From an uncultured Candidatus Saccharibacteria bacterium (lineage in GTDB: Bacteria; Patescibacteriota; Minisyncoccia; UBA6257; 1-14-0-10-44-23), in contig CAZXKC010000005.1 of assembly GCA_964641225.1 (NCBI GenBank), positions 32,134-96,133 of the forward strand: a stretch of DNA of 64,000 nt, written 5' to 3'. The translations under genes and the position numbers were made by a program. A model generated the notes under the pieces. That model saw only the letters and a program-made list of their open reading frames with translations, was not told where the DNA came from and ran no database searches. This document shows, in pieces, positions 4,023 to 46,611 of this stretch (position 1 is its first letter; each line of letters starts with the position of its first letter).

Positions 4023-5159
4023 TTATCGAATTTCCGCGGCAAACTGTTTTTTTGTCTCTTCGATCACTTTATTTTGTAACGGCTCAATTTCTTCAACTTT
4101 GAGGGTTCGATCAGTGCTCCGATAGACGATTCGGTAGGCATAGCTGATTTTGTCCGCTCCGAACTTTTTCTCGTTTTCGTATTTATCAAGCAGTGTCACC
4201 TCTTCGGCCAAATCGCCGACAATGTCGCGGATTAGGTCAAAGTAGTTGTTTGGTACGAATGTCTTTGGTACGACAAACGAGATATCGCGCGTGATCGGCG
4301 GATACTTACTGACTGTTTTAAATTTGTTACCAAGTTTCAGTTGTTTTTTTACGCGTTCGTCAGCCGACCAGAAGAGACGGATGTCGGGCAAATCCATGCT
4401 GATGATTCCAAGTCGCTCGAGACCAAATCCAAAAGCCCAACCATTGTATCCTTCAATACCAAAATTTTTAAGTACTGATTTTTTCGGCATTCCTCCACCC
4501 AAAATTTCTATCCAACGATCCCCGACTTTAACCTCAACTTGCAGTGATGGATCTGTGTATGGAAATGTATCGTCCAAAAAGCGATATTCAACATCTTTGC
4601 CAAATAAATTTTCTACGATTTGCGAAAGGACTTTTTTTAGCTCATCAAGCGGCATAATGCCTTTGCTGTCCGGCTGTAAATACCAGGCACCAAATTGATG
4701 GAAGACATTCATGTGTCGACTGTCGATTTCATCCTTTCGGTATACCTTGCCATAGCAGACAGTGCCAACTGACTCGCCACGCGCAATCCGCTCTTGTATC
4801 TCCGGCTGATTCAAATAGTAATACCACATGACCGTATCATGTGTGCGCAAAATATTTTTTTCATCCACGTAGTAAGTATCAGACTTACTTCGTGCAGGAT
4901 GGTTTGGTGCGAAATCGAACAAGTCAAATGTGATAGAGGTCGGTACAATTTCTGGAATGACAATGTTGTCAAGATTTTTTAAAACATCTGTGGCTCGCGC
5001 CCGAGCAACGATTTCGTAGAGGGGGCTCTCCGGCGTCCGCGACAAATCCGGCATCGCCAAAAAGCGCTTCATGCGCAGGGCTTCGGGGTCGCTGCGACCT
5101 TCCAATACTTTTAACGCCTGTTTCTCTTCCGGTGCGTTTATGATGATTTCTTTGGGCAT
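4023..5159 (-). CDS. pheS: Phenylalanine--tRNA ligase, monomeric mitochondrial-like form (PheS catalytic core fused to C-terminal FDX-ACB anticodon-binding domain)
   Basis: Class II motif 2 (YRKDEIDSRHMNVFHQ) and motif 3 (AFGFGLERL) are present. There is no N-terminal coiled coil. An extra ~100 aa C-terminal has the FDX-ACB signature (DISFVVP...YAYRIVYRSTDRTL). Confidence 0.8.
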   Translation of the reverse strand: MPKEIIINAPEEKQALKVLEGRSDPEALRMKRFLAMPDLSRTPESPLYEIVARARATDVLKNLDNIVIPEIVPTSITFDLFDFAPNHPARSKSDTYYVDEKNILRTHDTVMWYYYLNQPEIQERIARGESVGTVCYGKVYRKDEIDSRHMNVFHQFGAWYLQPDSKGIMPLDELKKVLSQIVENLFGKDVEYRFLDDTFPYTDPSLQVEVKVGDRWIEILGGGMPKKSVLKNFGIEGYNGWAFGFGLERLGIISMDLPDIRLFWSADERVKKQLKLGNKFKTVSKYPPITRDISFVVPKTFVPNNYFDLIRDIVGDLAEEVTLLDKYENEKKFGADKISYAYRIVYRSTDRTLKVEEIEPLQNKVIEETKKQFAAEIR

Positions 5160-11982: not shown

Positions 11983-12174
11983 CTACCATGTTGGTGGCTT
12001 AGGAGGGTCACATGGAATCATTGCGAGCCAGTAGATGAGGGCTATGAAGGGTACGCCGAGACACAGCGCCAGCGCAACCTCCCACAACTCCAATCCCCAC
12101 AACTTTTTCATGGTTTCCTCCGATTGAGATAGTATTCTTAGAATAGCACTCTTTATTATATTTGTCAATAGCAA
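11983..12174 (-). CDS. Small hydrophobic hypothetical peptide (possibly 42 aa from internal start at 12111)
   Basis: ORF between kbl and tdh; the C-terminal 40 aa are strongly hydrophobic (LALCLGVPFIALIYWLAMIP). GC is higher than in the neighbouring genes. Confidence 0.3.
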   Translation of the reverse strand: MLLTNIIKSAILRILSQSEETMKKLWGLELWEVALALCLGVPFIALIYWLAMIPCDPPKPPTW

Positions 12175-12203
12175 AAAAGCTCCTTAAATAAGGGTTTTTA
12201 GAC

Positions 12204-12244
12204 TTCTAATACCTCTATTGGCCTCTAATACTTCTATTCCCTCT
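12204..12244. repeat. Copy 2 of the ~42-nt repeated 3'-UTR element (TTCTAATACcTCTATtggcCTCTAATACtTCTATTCCCTCT)
   Basis: Near-identical to 2065-2106. It overlaps the stop codon of tdh. Confidence 0.6.
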
Positions 12245-13166
12245 TCTTCAGGTTCTTCAGCATCACCTTCGTCATCTTGGCGAGGTCAAATTCGTGTTTC
12301 CAGCCCCAGTCTTTGCGGGCTTGTGCGTCATTAATAGATTTTGGCCAGGAGTCGGCGATTTTTTGGCGGTGGTCGGGTTTATAGGTTACATCTACCGGAA
12401 CTATTTTATTTATTTCCTTTGCGAGTTCGTCGGCACGGAAGCTGATGGCGGCCATGTTGTAGCTCGTGCGGATTTTAATTTTGCTGGGCGGGGCATCCAT
12501 TAATTTGATCGTCCCGCGGATCGCGTCGTCCATATACATCATTGGGAGCACGGTGTCTTTTTTAACAAAACATTCGTATGAGCCTGTTTTGAGGGCTTCA
12601 TGGAAAATTGCGACTGCAAAATCAGTTGTCCCCCCACCCGGCTGTGCCTTCCAGCTAATCAGTCCTGGGTAGCGTACTGAGCGGACATCAACTCCGTATT
12701 TTAAGAAATAGTATTGGCAGAGTAGTTCACCGGCGACTTTAGTTACGCCATAAATTGTGGTCGGCTCAAGAACAGTTTGCTGGGGAGTTTTATTTCGGGG
12801 CGTGGTTGGTCCAAACGCAGCAATTGAGCTTGGCCAAAAGACGCGCATTTTGTATTTTACGGCTAGATCTAGAACAATCTTAAGGCCGTTCATGTTTACC
12901 TCCCACGCTAAATTTGGGTTTGCCTCCCCTGTTGCAGAAAGCAGTGAGACTAAATGAAAGACGGTATCAATGTTATATTTTTTGACGATGTGTTCAAGTG
13001 CGACGGCGTCAGTCATTTCTACAACTTCAACTGTTCCCTTCCAGCCTTTTGGCGGCTCGCGACGATCAAGTGACACGACGTGTAAAACTCCTTTCTTCTT
13101 CTGCAAAGCCGGTACGAGCTCTGAGCCAATTTGTCCGAATGCTCCGGTAACGAGAATATTTTTCAT
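12234..13166 (-). CDS. tdh: L-threonine 3-dehydrogenase, extended-SDR (GalE-like) type
   Basis: TGAFGQIGSEL NAD-binding motif and YGVTK catalytic Tyr-x3-Lys. Start taken at the internal ATG at 13164-13166 (MKNILVTGA...). Confidence 0.75.
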   Translation of the reverse strand: MKNILVTGAFGQIGSELVPALQKKKGVLHVVSLDRREPPKGWKGTVEVVEMTDAVALEHIVKKYNIDTVFHLVSLLSATGEANPNLAWEVNMNGLKIVLDLAVKYKMRVFWPSSIAAFGPTTPRNKTPQQTVLEPTTIYGVTKVAGELLCQYYFLKYGVDVRSVRYPGLISWKAQPGGGTTDFAVAIFHEALKTGSYECFVKKDTVLPMMYMDDAIRGTIKLMDAPPSKIKIRTSYNMAAISFRADELAKEINKIVPVDVTYKPDHRQKIADSWPKSINDAQARKDWGWKHEFDLAKMTKVMLKNLKKRE

Positions 13167-13249
13167 ATCAATAAGTTTATTAAAAATATCATTAACTGAG
13201 TTTATCCACAACAGCTTAATTTATATGGTACACTAATTGGGCAGTAATA

Positions 13250-13440
13250 ATTTATTTCACATTTTTTGGGGAAGCAGGTGGAACTCCTGCACAGTACCGC
13301 TACGGTTATAGTCCGAGCGCCAGAATGTGATTAGTCTCACTGTCTTAATCCTCGAGTAAGGATGCCAGGCGGATTCGGTGCTCTCCCCAGAACCCGAAAC
13401 CGACCACCCCTCTATCTCGAGATGGGTGTTTTTATTTTTT
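13250..13440 (+). promoter_or_regulatory. Structured 5' leader (~190 nt) ending in an intrinsic terminator immediately upstream of the 13451 ORF; candidate riboswitch/attenuator of unassigned class
   Basis: An extended -10-like TGgTACACT lies upstream. The leader has GGGGAAGCAGG...ACGGUUAUAGUCCGAGCGCC...CCCGAAACCGAC motifs and ends in hairpin CACCCCTCTATCTCGAGATGGGTG (13405-13428) plus TTTTTATTTTTT. Confidence 0.35.
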
Positions 13441-13450
13441 ACTTTTAATC

Positions 13451-15718
13451 ATGCCGGAGTTACGACAACCACGATTTGAAGATGAGGGAGCTGCAACAAC
13501 TACTTCAGAGCGGCCTTTTAGTGGTGAAACACTCGAAGAAGAATTGGAGCGCTTAGAGCAGGAGAAAGCGCAAAGAGAATTAGAGGATCGTTTAGAGCAA
13601 GAACGACTTGAAGCAGAAGAACGTGCTGCTGAGGTTGCCGAAGAAGAGGAACGGATTCAGGCGGAAGATATCTCTCTTATCGAAGCGCTTGGTTCGGATA
13701 AGGTTGAAGTTCGATTTGTTGATCCGGCTGATAAGGCAACGTATCCGCAAGCCAGCTCAGATGGACCAAGCCACCAGGATAAGTCTGGGGTTCCCGTAGC
13801 AAGTCTGCCGCAACGTTTTATAGATGGTAAAAGTCAGAATCCAGACGGTACGTTTGTGGTTGATGAGCTCATGCGCTTAGGTAATGCATCGCCTGAGGGT
13901 CTTGCTCGCGCGCAAAAGCATGACAATGATCTCAATACTCTGCAGTATCATATTTCGGAACCCTTCAAGTCATTTAATGGTGATGGAAAAATGTGGAGGA
14001 CGATCACTCGCGTTAATGCTAACGGAGAAGAGGTTGCTCGAAATTATGAGATTGCGCTTCCTAAAAAGGAAGCAGAGGAAGATGATAATGGAGACCTGCT
14101 TCCGGGTGGTACCAGTGAAGGATTAGGAAATGCGCTCGATTCAGAGGACGATGAGGTGGTCGAAGATGGTTTGCTGGATCCTAATTCGGACGGGCTCGAA
14201 TCCTTGTGGGCCGCCCAAATTTCAGAGCTCGAAAAAAGTAAGGCCTTGAAAGATGCAGAGACTCAGCGAGTCACTGCGCTGAATGTTTCGCCTACTTTAA
14301 GTGCTACAGAGCCTAATGTTTCTGTCATAGCTGCGCAGATGCCGGTTTCTGAAATTTTTGCCACTGAGCCAGGCGTTTCGGCGCAGCCTGAGGCTATAAA
14401 GACACCATCGTTATTTACTGAATCCTTCGCCAGCGCACCATCTGCAGTCAATACGACCGAAAATTTTGCTCTAGAAACAGATTCATTCACTCTTGAGGTC
14501 GCAAACCTGTCTACGCCGGAAGATTCTGTTATTTCATCTCTGGAGCATTTTGCCAATACAGAACCAGTTGTTAGTCATGAGGCTGCGCCTGGGGCTATTA
14601 AGGTATCATCTCACGAGCTACCAGTAGCTCGTGGAGCAGTTGATCTTGCAGTTGAGGTATCTGCGACAACGAGTGAAATAATTTCAGAGCCGGTAGCTCT
14701 TGTTCCAGAAATTTTAAGTGAAGAGAGTGTCGCGGAAAATTCAATAGCAACAGATGCAGCTTCAGAGATTAGCAATGAGTTTACGATTAATTTTTCGTCA
14801 GGTGATTTATTTAAGCCTGAAATCGTCCTGGCTGAAACGATGACGAACGGCGCGCAGACGCATACAGAGACATTTGCGCAGCCCGTCTTTGAAACACCGA
14901 CGGTTGAATTTGATGTAGCTCCTGAGGAGGCTATTACAGAATCTGCACCTGTTACAGAGCTTCACGAGGACGCAATGCCCTCCATTGAATCAGCCGCAGA
15001 GGTTGCTTCTATTCTATTTCCTAAAGAAAAATCAGTGCCTGTTGAAGTCGTAGCTGTCGCGCCGGAAATTGCCCCCACTCAAGTTGTAGCTATCCCGGCC
15101 GCACCGAGAGAGGCAATTACGCTGACGTTTAAAAAAGATATCGCGCAACCGACTGTTGCGCGCATAGAAGCAACGAAACCTAAGTCCGTTGAGGTTTTGA
15201 AAGATGAAGTGCCAGCGGCTAAGGCAAAAGAAGTGGTGCCCCCCCCAGCAGAGAAGGCAGAACCAATTCGGCTTGTTCGGAATGAAGCAGCCCCTATTCC
15301 AGTTGCCCGTAAGGCTGAACAGAAACATGTTGATCAATCGCCGAATGTACCTTCGGTAGAGAAATCAGCAGGTAGAATTTTGAAATTTGAAGATGCTGTT
15401 GCTAATAAAGAGCGCCGCTCCCCTTCGCTAACACCTGAAATATTAAAAACACCCGTTCAGAAAATTTCGAATCCGCTTGTACGATCAAAAGTCCCAGAGG
15501 CTGTGCAGCGTCGACAGGAGCGTGAGGAGCTCCCGACTTTTGCTTCTTCAGTTGTTCGGGCTCGAGAGGTTGCGCGAGTTACCCAAGAGGTGCACAATTT
15601 CAAGCCGCGTAGTACGGCTGCTCTGTCTGACATAATCTCACAAGAAACTCGAGAGCGGCGTATTCTAGACATAGAAGACCTACCGGAGGTTGGAATCCGG
15701 ATGCTTCGTCGAGCCTAA
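13451..15718 (+). CDS. Large acidic low-complexity protein (755 aa), function unknown
   Basis: Long uninterrupted ORF in an AT-rich genome, E/A/S/T/V/P-rich with an N-terminal E/R coiled-coil-like region. No signal peptide or TM segment. Confidence 0.55.
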   Translation: MPELRQPRFEDEGAATTTSERPFSGETLEEELERLEQEKAQRELEDRLEQERLEAEERAAEVAEEEERIQAEDISLIEALGSDKVEVRFVDPADKATYPQASSDGPSHQDKSGVPVASLPQRFIDGKSQNPDGTFVVDELMRLGNASPEGLARAQKHDNDLNTLQYHISEPFKSFNGDGKMWRTITRVNANGEEVARNYEIALPKKEAEEDDNGDLLPGGTSEGLGNALDSEDDEVVEDGLLDPNSDGLESLWAAQISELEKSKALKDAETQRVTALNVSPTLSATEPNVSVIAAQMPVSEIFATEPGVSAQPEAIKTPSLFTESFASAPSAVNTTENFALETDSFTLEVANLSTPEDSVISSLEHFANTEPVVSHEAAPGAIKVSSHELPVARGAVDLAVEVSATTSEIISEPVALVPEILSEESVAENSIATDAASEISNEFTINFSSGDLFKPEIVLAETMTNGAQTHTETFAQPVFETPTVEFDVAPEEAITESAPVTELHEDAMPSIESAAEVASILFPKEKSVPVEVVAVAPEIAPTQVVAIPAAPREAITLTFKKDIAQPTVARIEATKPKSVEVLKDEVPAAKAKEVVPPPAEKAEPIRLVRNEAAPIPVARKAEQKHVDQSPNVPSVEKSAGRILKFEDAVANKERRSPSLTPEILKTPVQKISNPLVRSKVPEAVQRRQEREELPTFASSVVRAREVARVTQEVHNFKPRSTAALSDIISQETRERRILDIEDLPEVGIRMLRRA

Positions 15719-15748: not shown

Positions 15749-17419
15749 ATGGCAACCGATTTCAAAAGAATTGAATATCATAACCTTCGAGCCGAGGCCG
15801 GAAAACTCCCAGCCGTCATTGGCCACACAGAGGAAGTTGAAAGGCTTACGCGCGTTATCAGTCGTCGAATCAATAACAACGCGCTTATTGTCGGTGCCAG
15901 CGGAAGCGGCAAGACAACACTTCTTCGCGGCTGGATTAAACAACTTTGTGCCAACGAGGCATTTGGGCAATTGCAGTTTGTACAATTTGACGCCAGCCAT
16001 CTCCATGATTTAAGTGAGGTTGATGACACGCGGCGTTACCAAGAGGCGTTTGCTACGCTACCGCCTTCTGTTGTCTGCATTGATGGATTTGGTTCTGCTG
16101 CGCAGAATAACGCGGCGCTGATGCAGCGCATTATTCGGCTCTACACAGCATTTTTTAAGAATTCTCAGGTCCGTCTTGTACTCACGCTTTCTCCGAGTGA
16201 GTTTTCCTGGATAGAGCGCGAGTATCCGCAATTTTTGCAATCATTTGAGGTAATTACACTCAAGCAGCAGACGACTATTGAATATATTGCGATGCTGCAG
16301 CACATGCTGCCCCGACTTAATGAAAGTCATAATATTGAAGTGCCTGCCGGTGCACTGCAGGAGCTCGTTGAACTTGTTGAACGGTTTCCAAAATTAGGGA
16401 CACTGCCTCGATCGGCAATTACCCTGCTTGATGAATGTATCGCTGCAGCTGCCGCGTCGGGTTCTAAAACGCTTACTGATGAGCTAGTACAGAACGTAGT
16501 TGCCAGCAAAACTAATATTCCGGTTGCGAAACTGAAACGCAATGAACTCAGCACTGTTCGTAATTTAGAGACAGAACTCAATGAGCGTGTTGTCGGCCAA
16601 GAGGGTGCAATTAAGAAAATTGCTGCCGCACTTCAACGGGCTGCTCTTGGTATGCGTAATCCCAACAAGCCACGGGGTTCCTTCTTAATGCTGGGGCCTT
16701 CGGGAGTTGGTAAAACCGAGACGGCAAAGATGGTTGCAGAAAAAATGTTTGGCAGCGCCGAAAGCTTTATTCGCTTTGATATGAGTGAATTTGCGCAAGA
16801 GCATACTGTGCAGCGTCTGATTGGCGCTCCGGCTGGCTATGTTGGTCATGACGAAGGTGGCGCGCTTACCAATGCACTTCGTGCCCAGCCGCATAGCTTG
16901 ATTTTGCTTGATGAAATTGAAAAGGCGCACCCGAAGGTGTTTGATATTTTCTTGCAGGTACTCGACGATGGCCGTTTGACTTCAGGGCAAAACGAGACGG
17001 TTGATGCGCGTCACGCAATCATTATGATGACCTCAAACATTGCCGTGCCCGGAATTATTTCTGGTATTGAGGCAGGTAGAGATGTTCATAGTGAGCAATT
17101 TATTCAAGAAGAGGTGTTGCCGTCGCTGGCTGATGTATTTCGTCTTGAATTTATCAATCGTTTTGATCACATTCTTGTCTTTAATCCCCTTACGCTGCCG
17201 ACACTCTTAGCGATCGCTCAACTGGAAATCAAAAAGATTGAAAAGCGTTTGGCTAAGCACAATGTAGAATTTCAAATTGATCCGGCGGTGCTTGAGGAGC
17301 GCATAAAGCAACTTGCCGATCCCCGTTTCGGCGCCCGGCCGGTTAAACGATTCATCGAGGAGACGTGTGAGTCATTGCTCGTAAAATCACTTCTCAAAGA
17401 ACATGATATTGCACAGTAA
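15749..17419 (+). CDS. Compact Clp/Hsp100-family AAA+ ATPase (degenerate D1 + canonical ClpA/B D2 domain)
   Basis: D1-like GASGSGKTTLL. D2 matches are LMLGPSGVGKTETAK, the sensor region ...LILLDEIEKAHPKVFDIFLQVLDDGRLT..., and a C-terminal small domain FINRFD...ARPVKRFIEE. No N-domain or M-domain. Confidence 0.8.
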   Translation: MATDFKRIEYHNLRAEAGKLPAVIGHTEEVERLTRVISRRINNNALIVGASGSGKTTLLRGWIKQLCANEAFGQLQFVQFDASHLHDLSEVDDTRRYQEAFATLPPSVVCIDGFGSAAQNNAALMQRIIRLYTAFFKNSQVRLVLTLSPSEFSWIEREYPQFLQSFEVITLKQQTTIEYIAMLQHMLPRLNESHNIEVPAGALQELVELVERFPKLGTLPRSAITLLDECIAAAAASGSKTLTDELVQNVVASKTNIPVAKLKRNELSTVRNLETELNERVVGQEGAIKKIAAALQRAALGMRNPNKPRGSFLMLGPSGVGKTETAKMVAEKMFGSAESFIRFDMSEFAQEHTVQRLIGAPAGYVGHDEGGALTNALRAQPHSLILLDEIEKAHPKVFDIFLQVLDDGRLTSGQNETVDARHAIIMMTSNIAVPGIISGIEAGRDVHSEQFIQEEVLPSLADVFRLEFINRFDHILVFNPLTLPTLLAIAQLEIKKIEKRLAKHNVEFQIDPAVLEERIKQLADPRFGARPVKRFIEETCESLLVKSLLKEHDIAQ

Positions 17420-17735
17420 CGAAAAAGAAAAAATAAATTCGCCGGAGAAGGCAAAGGCTCGAGCTGCGGCAGACGAACGCAGTGAGTCTGGTTTAACGCT
17501 TGCTCAGGTTGAGCGAACGGTCAAAGAACGCGCGGCCATGTTACAAAGTGTTGAGCGCTTTTTACGCGTAAGTACTCGCACAGAATTACGCGAGAAATTA
17601 GAACGTGAACAGAAATTATTGCTTGCACTGGTTGAACGTGAAAAAGAAATGCGTGCACATGCGAAAAAGATGATTCATATTTTGAATAAGGCCTATTTTA
17701 TTCAAAAACCACTTGATATAAGCATCTTCGAATAA
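17403..17735 (+). CDS. Hypothetical coiled-coil protein
   Basis: 110-aa K/E/R-rich ORF overlapping the end of the Clp-like gene by 17 nt. The true start may be further downstream. Confidence 0.35.
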   Translation: MILHSNEKEKINSPEKAKARAAADERSESGLTLAQVERTVKERAAMLQSVERFLRVSTRTELREKLEREQKLLLALVEREKEMRAHAKKMIHILNKAYFIQKPLDISIFE

Positions 17736-17739
17736 CCCT

Positions 17740-19020
17740 ATGTCGTATGTAACTATTGGTATAAATGAATATCGCAGTAAAAAGGTGCCGATTCAGTCGC
17801 GCGAAACTGACCGGCTGCGCCACATGTACATGATCGGTAAAACCGGCGTGGGCAAATCAACCGTGTTTCAAAGTATGTGTTTGCAGGACATCAAGAGTGG
17901 TCAAGGAACCTGCTTTATCGATCCACACGGTGAATCGATTGATTGGTTACTTAAACGTATTCCCGCGGAGCGACTCGAGGACGTCATTTTGTTTGACCCC
18001 AGCGATACTGAGTTCCCTTTTGGGCTTAATTTGCTTGAGGGTCACACCGAGCAGGAGAAAGATTTCCTTGTTTCGGAGTGTATTCAGATTTTTTATAAAT
18101 TATTTGATCCGGAGAAAACCGGTATTATCGGCCCACAATTTGAGCACTGGCTGCGTAATGCCGCTTTGACAGTAATGGCCGGCCCTGAGGGTGGCAGCAT
18201 TATTGAGATTCCAAAATTATTTGTTGATAAGGAATTTGAGATGAGCAAACGCAAGCATTTGACCGATCCTCTCGTGATTGATTTTTGGACAAAGCAGATG
18301 ACCAAGACCTCTGATTTTCACAAGAGTGAAATGCTCAACTATTTTATGAGTAAGTTTGGCCATTTTATGAACAACGCGCTGATGCGCAACATTATTGGTC
18401 AGCATCAGAGCAGTTTTAGTTTTGATGAGGTTATGAGTGGCAAAAAAATATTGCTCGTAAATCTTTCAAAAGGAAAAATTGGCGAGATGAACGCGCATAT
18501 GCTTGGTCTGATTCTTATCTCGAAGCTTCAGGCGGCAATCCTCAAGCGTGCTAATCAACCAAGCGCAGATAGATCTCCGTTCTATTTGTACGTAGATGAG
18601 TTTCAAAATTTTGTCACCGATACCTTTGTCAGTATTTTGAGTGAATCCCGAAAATACGGACTTGGGGCGCATATTACGAATCAATACTTGGCGCAGTTGC
18701 CGGAAAAAATTAAAGACGCGGTGCTCGGCAACGTGGGTACGCTGCTTTCGTTTGAAGTCGGAGCTGAAGATGCCGAATTGTTATCAAAAGAATTCGAGCC
18801 GCTTGAGCCGGCTGATTTTATGGGGCTGCCGCGCTACAACTTTTATATTAAGCTCATGGTCAACGGTAAAACGAGTCCAGCATTTTCTGGTGTGAGCATT
18901 GCTCCGGAGGCTGCTTATGATTCCGGTCTTATGGAACAAAATGTATTCACCCTCAATCGCCTTGCCTTCGGCTCGCCGCGATTACTTGTTGAGCAGCAGA
19001 TAAAGAATCAATTGCAGTAA
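17740..19020 (+). CDS. P-loop NTPase of the DUF87 / TraD-TraG (type IV secretion coupling protein-like) family, soluble form
   Basis: Walker A MIGKTGVGKST, Walker B LYVDEFQNF, and conserved T4CP-like segments (FIDPHGE, FGLNLLEG). No TM helices. Confidence 0.55.
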   Translation: MSYVTIGINEYRSKKVPIQSRETDRLRHMYMIGKTGVGKSTVFQSMCLQDIKSGQGTCFIDPHGESIDWLLKRIPAERLEDVILFDPSDTEFPFGLNLLEGHTEQEKDFLVSECIQIFYKLFDPEKTGIIGPQFEHWLRNAALTVMAGPEGGSIIEIPKLFVDKEFEMSKRKHLTDPLVIDFWTKQMTKTSDFHKSEMLNYFMSKFGHFMNNALMRNIIGQHQSSFSFDEVMSGKKILLVNLSKGKIGEMNAHMLGLILISKLQAAILKRANQPSADRSPFYLYVDEFQNFVTDTFVSILSESRKYGLGAHITNQYLAQLPEKIKDAVLGNVGTLLSFEVGAEDAELLSKEFEPLEPADFMGLPRYNFYIKLMVNGKTSPAFSGVSIAPEAAYDSGLMEQNVFTLNRLAFGSPRLLVEQQIKNQLQ

Positions 19021-43074: not shown

Positions 43075-44292
43075 CTAAGCAAGTTCGCCGTAGGCTTGTC
43101 GCACAGCCTTACTGTCTCTAAGCGTTTCGTAATTACGAGAAGTTTTAAAGTAATCGCTCTTTATTTTTTCCATGAGATCATCGAAAACACGCTGACTTGG
43201 ACTGCCTCCTTCAGGATTGAGTATCGTTCTGTCCCATGTCGTTGACATATCCCAAGCCTCTTTCATCTTGTTATAAAGCGTTCCCTCGCCCTCCTGCCCT
43301 TCAAGCACGGTTGCTTTAGCCCAGATAGTCTCAGGGCGCTCGGTGCTTCGGCGAGCTATCACCGTTGGCGTACCAACAATAAGTCCCTCCTCCTGTACCG
43401 TTCCACTGTCTGAAACAATAAGTCGCGCTTCTTTCTCGAGTCGTAGGAAGTCAAAAAAACCAAGCGGCTTTGTTTTAGTAAATGTATCGCTATTAAGTAT
43501 GCTCATGAGCCCAAATTTCTCGATATTTGCTACCGTACGCGGCATCATAGGAAAAACTATCGTCATTTTCTTTTCTTGAGCAAATTTTACAATATCAGTT
43601 AACTTATTTTTCAATATTTCCGCATTCGAAATATTCTCTTCGCGATGAAGACCCATGAGGATGAATTTTTTACTTTCTAGTTTAAGATCCTTAAGGACAC
43701 CTGAGGCATCTACGCGAGGCATCCACTGCTCTACCGCATCCATGATAATATTTCCGATGCAAAGTACTCGGAAATCCGCTATGCCTTCGGCGACTAGTAG
43801 CTCCTTATATCGTGGTAGATAGCTATAGAGTGCGTCAGAAAGATGATCAATCACAATTCGACATTTTTCCTCCGGCATTCGCCAATCGAAACTGCGTCCT
43901 CCTGCCTCAAGATGGATAACTGGGATACCGTACCGCGCAACAATTACCGATGAAAGGACGGTATTTGTGTCTCCGAGATACATTACAGCATCAGGTTTTA
44001 CTTTTTCCAGCATATCGTATACGCGTTCATCGAGAAGGGCTGTCTGCAAAGCATAATTGCTTGCTCCTCGTTCTTTTAACGTTAGTCCTATACCCAAGTC
44101 AATATCTGGTTTGCGAATATTAAGGTCTTTTATAAAATTTCCAAATAGTTCCGGATCATAATGCTGTCCGGAATGAACAAGAATATGTTCGATAGTATCC
44201 TTACCTTTTTCATCTAACAGCTCAATAAGCTTAAACATTCGTATATAGTCTGGGCGAATTCCTAATAAGGTCACTAACTTGAATTTTTTCAT
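43075..44292 (-). CDS. UDP-N-acetylglucosamine 2-epimerase family protein (second copy, NeuC/WecB-like)
   Basis: LGIRPDYIRM, YLGDTNTVLSSVIVA, DSGTVQEEG; 405 aa. Confidence 0.75.
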   Translation of the reverse strand: MKKFKLVTLLGIRPDYIRMFKLIELLDEKGKDTIEHILVHSGQHYDPELFGNFIKDLNIRKPDIDLGIGLTLKERGASNYALQTALLDERVYDMLEKVKPDAVMYLGDTNTVLSSVIVARYGIPVIHLEAGGRSFDWRMPEEKCRIVIDHLSDALYSYLPRYKELLVAEGIADFRVLCIGNIIMDAVEQWMPRVDASGVLKDLKLESKKFILMGLHREENISNAEILKNKLTDIVKFAQEKKMTIVFPMMPRTVANIEKFGLMSILNSDTFTKTKPLGFFDFLRLEKEARLIVSDSGTVQEEGLIVGTPTVIARRSTERPETIWAKATVLEGQEGEGTLYNKMKEAWDMSTTWDRTILNPEGGSPSQRVFDDLMEKIKSDYFKTSRNYETLRDSKAVRQAYGELA

Positions 44293-44339
44293 TACTTAAG
44301 CATCGCAAGAATGGTCTTTGCGCGCAAGGCAGCAATCTA

Positions 44340-44368
44340 TTGACAAAAGAGTGTTTCGGAGGTATAAT
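44340..44368 (+). promoter_or_regulatory. Consensus sigma70 promoter TTGACA-17nt-TATAAT driving the high-GC DUF218-like gene; 10-bp palindrome TTGCGCGCAA immediately upstream
   Basis: Exact -35 (44340-44345) and -10 (44363-44368) hexamers with a 17-nt spacer. AGGAGGG RBS sits 7 nt before the ATG at 44448. Confidence 0.55.
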
Positions 44369-44447
44369 ACTATCCTCTACGGAAGCTGCGATACTGATCG
44401 CATGCATGACCCGTGGAAAGAGAAAATAGGTAGCAGGAGGGTGCGGA

Positions 44448-45137
44448 ATGCCGATTGGACCGGACATCAACAAAGACCCCGACCCGCGTGACGCAGGGGC
44501 CGAGGTCATGGCGTACTGCATGTGGCCGGACAAGATCCGGAGCATGCGCCTACAGCCCGACGTCATCGTCGTCTACACGGGCGACGGGCGTCGGCTCGCC
44601 ACCGCCGCCATCCGCCGCGCTCGGGAGTACCCGAACATCCCCGTCTTCATCGTCGGGCCCGACAGCCTGATGGCGAGCGAGCTGGACGGCCAGATGAACG
44701 CCGAACACCTCAAGGCCGAGATGGTGGGGCATGGAATCGCGGCCGGCCGGATCATCACCGATTCGAGCCCGCAGAGCATCTACACCCACGGCCAGGCCAA
44801 CCAGGCGGCCGTGCGCTTCCGGGAGGAAACCTGGGCCACCATGCTGCTGATCACCAGTCAGCACCATGCGTACCGGGCGTTCATGATCACCCTGGGCGTC
44901 TTCAGCCGGGAAGGCCTGGCCGACCGGGTCGTCATCGTGCCAGACTCCGTCTACGAATTCGGTTTCGGCGAGCACCCGGCGGAATGGAGCGAGGAGTGGC
45001 GACGCCACACTCCCTGGGTCTGTCTCGTTCGGGACGGGATTCCAAAGGTCAGAAGCGGGCAGGAGAAGCACCCGCAGAACTTCGCGCAGAGCGACGTCGC
45101 ACAGCAGTACGTCAGACGCATCACCGCCAAGCTGTAA
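44448..45137 (+). CDS. High-GC (~65%) DUF218/YdcF-like family protein; foreign cassette
   Basis: 229 aa. The conserved DUF218 core is (V)IVVYTGDG...IPVFIVGPDS. It is followed by terminator AAGAGGAGCGG...CCGCTCCTCTT + TTTTTT (45148-45212). Confidence 0.55.
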   Translation: MPIGPDINKDPDPRDAGAEVMAYCMWPDKIRSMRLQPDVIVVYTGDGRRLATAAIRRAREYPNIPVFIVGPDSLMASELDGQMNAEHLKAEMVGHGIAAGRIITDSSPQSIYTHGQANQAAVRFREETWATMLLITSQHHAYRAFMITLGVFSREGLADRVVIVPDSVYEFGFGEHPAEWSEEWRRHTPWVCLVRDGIPKVRSGQEKHPQNFAQSDVAQQYVRRITAKL

Positions 45138-45224
45138 CAGGGGTATGCGTCGGATGGCAGCACAAGAGGAGCGGAAAGTTACGTGAAGTTTACACGTACG
45201 CCGCTCCTCTTGCCTTTTTAATAA

Positions 45225-45253
45225 TTGACTTTTGTTTTTAATAATGCTATAAT
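45225..45253 (+). promoter_or_regulatory. Second consensus-type promoter TTGACT-17nt-TATAAT upstream of the HIT-like ORF
   Basis: -35 at 45225-45230, -10 at 45248-45253. Confidence 0.5.
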
Positions 45254-45441
45254 AGCACTCCGTCAAGTAGATCAGGATTTCCTATTTCACTAACAAGGGA
45301 GATTGTCTCATCGGCACGAAATGGACGTATCGTACGCCTGCCACTCAGGCGGCCTACGACGCAGCACGAGCCTCCGGCACACCGGGAACCGATCCGTTCG
45401 GTGACTGGGCGGAGAGATCCCTCCGATCATTCACCTACTGG

Positions 45442-45681
45442 GTGATCGTCCCGAACAAGTACCCGATGGACGAGATCGCCGCGACGAACCACCTCTTGAT
45501 CCCGAAGCGACCATTCTCGACCGAGGACGAGATGACGCCGGAGGAGCAGCAGGAACTGCGTGAGATCAAGCAGGTGCTGGCCCACGAGCGCGAGTACGAC
45601 TTCATCCTCGAGAACTTTCCCGTCCGACGATCGGTGATGCTGCGGTGGCACCTGCACCTAGTGACCGCCAAGGACACCTGA
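45442..45681 (+). CDS. High-GC HIT-like (histidine-triad-like) domain protein; 5' boundary uncertain (reading frame is open back to 45271 without an ATG/GTG)
   Basis: NHLLIPKRPFSTEDEMTPEEQQEL resembles the HIT xHxLVIPKxH...L..EE region. C-terminal RWHLHLV resembles a degenerate HxHxHxx triad. The track start is GTG at 45442. Confidence 0.4.
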   Translation: MIVPNKYPMDEIAATNHLLIPKRPFSTEDEMTPEEQQELREIKQVLAHEREYDFILENFPVRRSVMLRWHLHLVTAKDT

Positions 45682-45732
45682 TCGCTTCCAGCGAGTTCGC
45701 GCCCCGACCGCAAGGTCGGGGCGCCTTCTCTT

Positions 45733-46611
45733 TTAAAGCGCCTCAATCATTTCTAAGAACGAGGGTACCTCGAGTTTGGTATTAAGATCTTTGACAGTAG
45801 AGAGAACACGGTTTAGTTTTGGTTCGTCATCTTTTTTAATTTCACACGTAATATTGAATTTCTTGGCAAAAACCTGAAGCATTTCGTACTTTGAAACAGT
45901 TGTTGAAAATACATGATAGAGTCCAGACTTTGGATATTTTCCTGGCTCAGACATTATTTTATCGCATACATTGCCAAATTCTTTGGTTGTAATACCGTTC
46001 CAAAAATGATTTGTGTATCCAGTGATTGTTTTGCCGTCCTGCTGCAAAAACCAATCTAATAATCCGGTATGACCCGCTAGTTCGCGCCCAATAATCGAAG
46101 TCCGAATAGTCAGGCACTCGGTCGGCTCGCCTAGACTCTTGGAGAGACCGTAAATATCAACAGGGGTCTTAGGAGAATTTTCGTTGTAAGGGAAACCCGT
46201 CTTGCCGTCAAAGGCGCAATCAGTTGTAATATGGATCAATTTGGAGCCCAGCTCGCGGGCAAGCACATGAGGCAAAGCACCGTTAATAAAAAACGTTAAG
46301 GCTGGGTCTTTAAGCGAAAAAGGAATGGTTACCCCGAGGGCGTTAATAGCGTAATCAAATTCGCCTACAGTTTTAAAAAAGTTTTTTAAATATTCACTTG
46401 GAGATCCTTTCTTTTCAAGAAATTCTTTGTAGAGTATCTCCGCATCAAACGTCGCTACCTTCGCGTTCTGCGCAGTGCCGTATGTATCAGTTAAGAGTTT
46501 TACTTTGCCTTGATCGCGTATAGCCAAAATGAGCTCATATCGGTCTTTAAGCACGCCATATACTGCGCTGCCAAGCATTCCCGTGGCACCAAATAATAGA
46601 ACTTTCTTCAT
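45733..46611 (-). CDS. NAD(P)-dependent sugar-nucleotide reductase, RmlD (dTDP-4-dehydrorhamnose reductase)-like
   Basis: MKKVLLFGATGMLGS Rossmann start, YGLSK catalytic motif, about 290 aa. Start taken at the internal ATG (46611). Confidence 0.65.
   Translation of the reverse strand: MKKVLLFGATGMLGSAVYGVLKDRYELILAIRDQGKVKLLTDTYGTAQNAKVATFDAEILYKEFLEKKGSPSEYLKNFFKTVGEFDYAINALGVTIPFSLKDPALTFFINGALPHVLARELGSKLIHITTDCAFDGKTGFPYNENSPKTPVDIYGLSKSLGEPTECLTIRTSIIGRELAGHTGLLDWFLQQDGKTITGYTNHFWNGITTKEFGNVCDKIMSEPGKYPKSGLYHVFSTTVSKYEMLQVFAKKFNITCEIKKDDEPKLNRVLSTVKDLNTKLEVPSFLEMIEAL

Follow-up and report, generated by a model that had tools for sequence, protein, structure and literature searches.

In a 64,000-nt stretch of contig CAZXKC010000005.1 from an uncultured Candidatus Saccharibacteria bacterium (hereafter the window), the leader in front of a 755-aa open reading frame (ORF) is, judged by its sequence, a class II cobalamin riboswitch of a known RNA family. 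We consider it most likely, with good confidence, that this corrinoid riboswitch turns off transcription of a four-gene operon when corrinoid suffices. The operon encodes an acidic protein (gene 1), a ClpB-like ATPase (gene 2), a small protein (gene 3) and a VirD4-like ATPase (gene 4). An initial annotation had proposed a riboswitch or attenuator leader at this site and had named an absence of conservation, covariation and an Rfam match as what would speak against it; all three are present and, together with the terminator, bear the proposal out. Its picture of a riboswitch leader that ends in a terminator stands. The class it suggested does not, and the P13 hairpin with its kissing loop and the four-gene unit had gone unseen.

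A class II cobalamin aptamer and its relatives

The aptamer occupies positions 13257-13330 of the plus strand, where the Rfam model RF01689 (AdoCbl-II, clan CL00101) matches over its full length (model positions 1-81 of 81). A search against Rfam had been recommended in the initial annotation, and the resulting match scores 56.2 bits, above the gathering score of 36.5, with E-values of 2e-12 to 5e-11. The fold comprises an outer helix (UCACAU/AUGUGA), an inner helix (UUUGG/CCAGA), P4 (GCAGG/CCUGC), P5 with its loop L5, and P6 (CGG/CCG), with the core AGUCCGAGCGCC. P6 carries a 7-nt loop and lacks a peripheral extension, which places the aptamer in class II. The same four-way junction core without the P6 extension defines the class II family known as AdoCbl-II or 'AdoCbl-variant' (RF01689; studied example env8HyCbl), consistent with the full-length model match. 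A rule that predicts the form of cobalamin bound was not found in PMC6158498.

The short elements GGGGA (13269-13273), ACGG (13302-13305) and CCGAGCGCC (13313-13321), in which the initial annotation had seen a weak resemblance to ydaO/ykkC-type motifs, all fall within this match, where they correspond to conserved positions in the core of the cobalamin aptamer. Across 12000-15000, only the cobalamin clan was matched at E<=1; ydaO (cyclic-di-AMP) and ykkC (guanidine) gave no match at that threshold in this interval and none at gathering score in the whole window. Membership of another class, ydaO/ykkC-like or otherwise, or a chance resemblance draws on short motifs only, and its probability is practically negligible given that only cobalamin-clan models came up in the 3-kb scan at E<=1, the E-value of 2e-12, and the conservation and covariation of the element in relatives. 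The folding z-score of the whole leader (-1.66) is unimpressive alone, so the case is carried by the covariance-model match and by comparison with relatives. The structure is far beyond chance expectation.

For this comparison, contigs of relatives (labeled L001, L002 and so on) were chosen through gene 2 homologs of 63-72% identity, then through homologs of 56-60%, and finally through one gene 4 homolog with a Magasanikbacteria label. A search of genome collections with the ClpB-like protein gave no confirmed locus, and relatives were instead gathered through protein homologs, contig look-ups and DNA-pattern scans. The operon set holds 12 distinct loci, namely the window and L001, L002, L003, L006, L008, L016, L036, L051, L052, L053 and L054, with records labeled Pacebacteria, Nomurabacteria, Kaiserbacteria and Magasanikbacteria. 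The source labels on homologs of genes 2 and 4 are Pacebacteria, Nomurabacteria, Kaiserbacteria and Wolfebacteria, all within Patescibacteria. About 35 further riboswitch loci, mostly from Patescibacteria, came from pattern scans of genome and metagenome collections; L010, L032 and L035 were dropped because the 20-nt pattern matched by chance inside coding sequence.

A cobalamin riboswitch leader lies directly before gene 1 in each of the 12 operon loci, with a common layout in 12/12 of aptamer, P13, hairpin with U-run, and an ATG about 1-45 nt further on. Besides the window, RF01689 matches L001 (55.3 bits) and L008 (48.5 bits). Unlike the window, the leaders of L002, L003, L006 and L051-L054 carry extensions in the form of P4/P6 insertions at the same position before the operon, and their best models are RF01482 (L003, 66.7 bits; L051, 65.0 bits; L052, 47.5 bits; L054, 40.6 bits; L053, 33.2 bits) or RF00174 (L002, 27 bits; L006, a weak 13.1 bits). 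The low scores of L002 and L006 are due to long insertions in both P4 and P6. An exact 20-nt core, CTGCACAGTRCCGCTACGGT, is found together with P13 and the terminator in L006, L016 and L036, and L016 and L036 were assigned by these three features without an Rfam score.

Within the leaders, a 39-nt core is identical in the window, L001 and L008, and the flanks are unalignable. An alignment of four leaders likewise shows the core and P13 to be almost invariant and the promoter region, outer helix, linker and terminator to differ. The outer helix changes in sequence and keeps its complementarity (UCACAU/AUGUGA in the window, CUUGC/GCAAG in L001, GAUCGC/GCGAUC in L008 and UUUGU/GCAAA in L051), and a P5 pair is switched from A-U to U-A in L053. 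The rest of the aptamer core is invariant and hence uninformative on compensatory change. That the RNA has been conserved while the adjacent gene 1 diverged beyond detection argues for strong selection on the RNA.

Kissing loop, terminator and predicted switching

Downstream of the aptamer, a P13 hairpin (13348-13363, plus strand; stem AUCCU/AGGAU) carries the loop L13, CGAGUA (13353-13358), the partner of the aptamer loop L5, UACCG (13295-13299, plus strand). We propose the kissing pairs U13295-A13358, A13296-U13357, C13297-G13356, C13298-G13354 and G13299-C13353, with A13355 bulged; the L5-L13 kissing loop of env8 also has a bulged nucleotide (PMC10327014). A P13-type hairpin follows the aptamer by 17-60 nt in every related leader. 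In the general form, L5 U-R-C-C-G pairs with L13 C-G-A-G-Y-A through five pairs and leaves the A bulged, so that L5 of this lineage differs from the UCCCG consensus.

Covariation of the kissing loop and P13 was scored in an alignment of 31 distinct leaders (A1). All five kissing pairs are paired in 31/31 leaders. At the R:Y pair (8:36), 22 leaders have G:C and the other 9 have A:U, with zero exceptions, and the observed covariation score was reached by 0 of 500 shuffles, in a set whose sequences are related and in which P13 was located by its loop pattern with either pyrimidine allowed regardless of L5. The stem pairs of P13 covary too, and both R:Y variants are seen among operon leaders and among the other leaders.

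The intrinsic terminator (13405-13440, plus strand) pairs 13405-13413 with 13420-13428 across the loop AUCUCG and ends in a U-run (13429-13440, TTTTTATTTTTT). Its hairpin, CACCCCUCU/AGAUGGGUG, contains one C.U mismatch and is worth -9.3 kcal/mol alone; a simple terminator scan missed it because of this internal mismatch. The hairpin is present in every fold of the window leader computed with ViennaRNA. The initial annotation had placed a hairpin and U-run 10 nt before the start codon, which agrees with a U-run ending at 13440 and an ATG at 13451. In 11/11 other operon leaders, a hairpin and U-run occupy the same position with a different sequence.

Between P13 and the terminator lies a middle hairpin (13368-13405, plus strand; stem GGCGGAUUCGG/CCGAAACCGACC, loop UGCUCUCCCCAGAAC) that, with its conserved loop CUCUCCCCAGA, is common only to the window and L008 (about 4925-4962). 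The loop is complementary over 9 bp to the aptamer 5′ strand UUUUGGGGA, and this pairing appears in the full-length minimum-energy fold. We did not adopt pairing of the UCCCCAGAA loop with UUUUGGGGA as the switch, since the terminator stays intact and only the window and L008 share the pairing.

In the repressing switch that we favor, corrinoid would bind the aptamer at 13257-13330 (the binding itself we infer), and in the bound state L5 would pair with L13 and lock P13. With P13 locked, the terminator (13405-13428 plus U-run) would form and polymerase would stop 10 nt short of the gene 1 start codon. When corrinoid is lacking, P13 would be unlocked, and the 5′ half of the terminator would be disturbed by the loop and 3′ strand of P13 or perhaps by a ribosome on a short upstream ORF (uORF); polymerase would then read through into genes 1-4. 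The same architecture of aptamer, kissing loop to P13 and separate terminator is found in the Priestia megaterium metE leader, where the kissing loop stabilizes P13 and the 3′ side of P13 otherwise pairs with the terminator's 5′ side, as tested by compensatory mutagenesis (PMC10327014). That riboswitch has a UCCCG L5, against UACCG in the window, and controls a B12-independent methionine synthase (PMC10327014). In a further difference, the 3′ side of P13 and the 5′ half of the terminator are weakly complementary in the window, at a level that does not exceed shuffled controls.

An analysis of alternative folds, which the initial annotation had also recommended, supported an antiterminator in several relatives but not in the window copy. 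Folds of the platform alone pair P13 strands with terminator halves in L001, L002, L003, L006, L016, L036, L030, L021 and L011. Before the 3′ half of the terminator is made, the minimum-energy folds of L003, L016, L051, L052 and L053 include a pairing of L13 and the P13 3′ strand with the 5′ half of the terminator. This P13-3′/terminator-5′ pairing beats at least 95% of shuffled controls in 10/27 related leaders, and the antiterminator often uses the very L13 bases that form the kissing loop.

Several observations weigh against corrinoid-dependent repression of the operon through this switch. Every fold of the window leader, whether the aptamer is included or not, contains P13, the middle hairpin and the terminator together, the energy advantage of the antiterminator is 0.0 kcal/mol, and the duplex that L13 and the P13 3′ strand would form with the 5′ half of the terminator (-6.5 kcal/mol) does not outperform shuffles (fraction 0.61). 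By these folding models, the antiterminator of the window copy appears to be the weakest link. In addition, no B12 link is known for any of the four downstream proteins, and the only grounds for their co-transcription are junctions that are 30 nt long or overlapping and the absence of internal signals above background. A different antiterminator, in which the 5′ core of the aptamer, GGGGAAGCAGGUGG, pairs with the 5′ half of the terminator, reaches -12 kcal/mol in the window, yet it is no better than shuffled halves in 10/11 leaders; the strength of this duplex is an effect of purine/pyrimidine composition, and the candidate was rejected.

A ribosome could take the place of the antiterminator strand. 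A candidate 28-codon uORF (13362-13448, plus strand) has its AUG in the 3′ strand of P13 and extends through the terminator to a stop 2 nt short of the gene 1 ATG. Without corrinoid, AUG 13362 would be exposed and a translating ribosome would block the terminator, and with corrinoid the kissing loop would hide the AUG. Terminator-crossing ORFs that start at P13+15 to +18 are shared by the window, L001, L002, L008 and L053 (in L008 the stop overlaps the gene 1 start as ATGA), and in four of these leaders, all but L053, the P13-3′/terminator-5′ pairing is absent from the minimum-energy fold. Interplay of a B12 riboswitch with a uORF is also reported for Mycobacterium tuberculosis (PMC11260477). 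However, the uORF does not reach the terminator in L006, where it has 9 codons, or in L051, where it has 4, and it is absent in L003, L016, L052 and L054, its peptide is not conserved, and 28 open codons are expected by chance in about 1 in 4 cases. The cases are moreover not independent of one another, as the AUG is part of the GGAUG that one sublineage has conserved, and we regard ribosome-based readthrough as improbable.

The sign of the response could also be reversed, with corrinoid favoring readthrough and P13 itself acting as the antiterminator, as in Alkalihalobacillus halodurans cobT. Activating corrinoid riboswitches do exist (PMC10327014), and the window terminator is predicted to form by default. 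Such a design, however, needs P13 and the terminator to be mutually exclusive, whereas here they lie about 40 nt apart, have no nucleotides in common and occur together in each of the predicted folds. Relatives show the repressing arrangement, in which the 3′ strand of P13 competes with the 5′ half of the terminator, and the same riboswitch type precedes uptake-type genes that are normally repressed by B12. Activation is therefore very unlikely.

A terminator that is predicted to be favored in both states, as in the window copy, would also suit a riboswitch and terminator that mainly produce a stand-alone short RNA acting elsewhere, with the operon expressed independently and unregulated. Listeria Rli55 and Enterococcus EutX are reportedly stand-alone riboswitch RNAs of this kind. 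We give this arrangement only a very small chance here, as the element stands directly before gene 1 in 12/12 loci, the ATG follows the U-run by about 1-45 nt and leaves no space for a second promoter, and no promoter-like signal above background is found downstream.

Repression by termination, the reading that we retain, also suits the way in which this genome appears to start translation. In env8HyCbl and in Escherichia coli btuB, the platform hairpin holds the ribosome-binding site (PMC10327014), whereas the platform of the window is an intrinsic terminator. A Shine-Dalgarno-like motif lies within 20 nt of the start in only 4/43 window genes (ORFs of at least 200 aa), which suggests that the genome largely initiates without Shine-Dalgarno sites. 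With so few of them, a translational platform that sequesters the ribosome-binding site is not an available mode, and a gene 1 without such a site is normal for this genome. Elsewhere in the window, at 44448-45137 (within 44001-46000), where GC content peaks at 0.53 against about 0.42 nearby, a DUF218 gene has a clear AGGAGG ribosome-binding site, which is unusual here. The region of this peak, 44001-46000, carries long overlapping ORFs on both strands and may have been acquired horizontally.

The operon and the upstream region

Four plus-strand genes follow the leader, separated by a 30-nt gap or short overlaps, and their order is the same in all operon loci. Gene 1 (13451-15718, plus strand) encodes the 755-aa acidic protein (18.7% D+E), which is hypervariable in sequence and probably largely disordered, and which had no match in Pfam, NCBIfam, PADLOC or PDB. 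An exhaustive HMMER search among 1.84 billion representative proteins found two homologs, and a word-indexed search returned only the protein itself. Its positional counterparts, which range from 287 to 1021 aa across operon loci, are also acidic and probably disordered. They share a short stretch of conservation near the N terminus and, at the C terminus, the tail NG(I/V)TL(K/R)RAA, to which the tail of the window protein, GIRMLRRA, is related.

Gene 2 (15749-17419, plus strand) encodes a double AAA+ ATPase of 556 aa that resembles ClpB/ClpA but has neither the N-terminal nor the middle domain. Its relatives are 54-72% identical, and no ClpP-docking loop of the IGF/IGL type was seen on reading the sequence. 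Gene 3 (17403-17735, plus strand) encodes a 110-aa protein that was assigned to no family and is conserved in position, with relatives at 33-47% identity. Gene 4 (17740-19020, plus strand) encodes a 426-aa VirD4/TraD/TrwB-like P-loop ATPase, in which an N-terminal membrane segment is not evident on reading the sequence. It is the most conserved gene of the operon, at 71-84% identity across the best 119 database matches besides the query, which makes for a sharp contrast in rate within the operon to gene 1, undetectable by HMMER outside two relatives.

Inside the operon, no promoter or terminator signal rises above background, which suggests that the four genes are co-transcribed. None of the four proteins matched a B12-related family, so the association with B12 genes that is typical of such leaders is missing from the window; this association is typical of the clan and not a structural requirement for membership.

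Upstream of the aptamer, the promoter-like TGgTACACT of the initial annotation was recovered at 13226-13234 (plus strand) as an extended -10-like element read from the sequence. Similar TAnAnT hexamers precede the aptamers of L001 (TACAAT), L008 (TACACT), L002 and L006 (both TAGACT), and L051 (TGgTACAAT). A consensus promoter scan found nothing. Transcription would start near 13241.

The nonamer TTATCCACA (13202-13210, plus strand), upstream of the promoter, matches the DnaA-box consensus TTATNCACA at every position. Copies that are exact or have a single mismatch are located some 90-140 nt upstream of the aptamer core in L001, L002, L008 (about 4745) and L052 (about 2678-2686), and their distance to the -10 element varies. 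We rejected an operon-specific DnaA box, since the nonamer is not enriched in the window (3 found vs 2.0 expected) and exact copies also stand before riboswitch loci that lack the operon (L025 and L029). It is probably an element of the promoter region and may be a regulator site. The upstream neighbor is divergent, a minus-strand NAD-dependent epimerase gene with its most likely start at 13166. In L002 (5537-5805) and L008 (4450-4744), the riboswitch promoter is immediately preceded by the end of a small conserved ORF with the motif GPDGRYYCMRKKK, which the window lacks.

A probable B12 sensor before an uncharacterized gene cluster

Outside the operon, the same riboswitch type precedes genes for DUF4430 proteins that are lipoproteins or secreted, in many cases as fusions with a prenyltransferase-like alpha-toroid, and a gene for a DUF6580 membrane protein. 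We take DUF4430, the alpha-toroid and DUF6580 to be families of B12-capture or uptake type, and the fusion of DUF4430 with the alpha-toroid is presumably a transcobalamin-like arrangement. The same type also precedes nrdG-nrdD in Bacillota and a deoxynucleoside kinase in an Erysipelotrichaceae genome. Given these uptake-type, nrd and kinase genes downstream, the lineage acts like any ordinary B12 sensor, and within its regulon it is the ATPase operon that stands out.

Aptamers nearly identical to that of the L003 operon leader precede a gene for a secreted 630-710 aa protein with alpha-toroid and DUF4430 in L024, L033, L034 and L048. Such lineages seem to have at least two riboswitch-controlled operons, with paralogous copies of the element. 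In L051, the gene nrdJ (557-2893), which encodes the class II ribonucleotide reductase that depends on B12, is the direct upstream neighbor of the riboswitch. In L020 (1410-3653) and L025 (4496-6763), nrdJ precedes the riboswitch-controlled operon on the same strand. This placement suggests a B12-related gene neighborhood.

The B12 regulons described by comparative genomics include uptake genes and B12-independent isozymes, for instance nrdDG or metE. The sister riboswitches fit these categories, whereas the window operon falls in none of them. A likeness can be drawn to Mycobacterium tuberculosis ppe2, where, as reported (PMC11260477), a B12 riboswitch precedes a gene of uncertain function and a uORF is involved. 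The ppe2 aptamer (PMC11260477) is atypical, however, the organism and genes are unrelated, and the uORF of the window is only a weak candidate. The open-access literature gave no description of a cobalamin riboswitch in Patescibacteria, the candidate phyla radiation (CPR) or Parcubacteria, nor of this gene cluster. The RNA family is thus known and the mechanism most likely known, and it is the regulon member that is apparently undescribed. As far as the sequences indicate, the novelty lies in the conserved placement of the riboswitch before an uncharacterized ClpB-like/VirD4-like operon across several groups of Patescibacteria.

Tentatively, the operon may be a previously unrecognized member of the corrinoid regulon across these groups. 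Low B12 would then induce a machine, composed of the ClpB-like unfoldase and the VirD4/TraD-like translocase, that handles the gene 1 protein via its C-terminal tail. Such a machine might serve to obtain corrinoid from a host or neighbor, or to bypass the class II ribonucleotide reductase, for example through uptake of DNA or deoxynucleotides. The deoxynucleoside kinase and nrdDG under the same riboswitch type in other phyla, and nrdJ near the riboswitches of L051, L020 and L025, are hints that fit this idea. The function of the machine is speculation; the conserved riboswitch placement is observed in 12/12 loci.

The riboswitch is in itself ordinary and could be found by any Rfam-based annotation, and its interest lies in the genes that it would control, as riboswitch regulons are a reliable route to the function of unknown genes. 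In the window, the expression platform attached to a class II cobalamin aptamer is a terminator, and the genome appears largely to lack Shine-Dalgarno sites. Patescibacteria are very small and depend on hosts, and scavenging of the vitamin is suggested by the secreted B12-capture proteins that this riboswitch type precedes. Here, a predicted B12 sensor is fixed before one of the most conserved uncharacterized gene clusters of the group. The prediction is that expression of the ClpB-like/VirD4-like system would rise when corrinoid is scarce, and the placement would link vitamin status to a possible machine for secretion or DNA translocation, or to deoxynucleotide supply.

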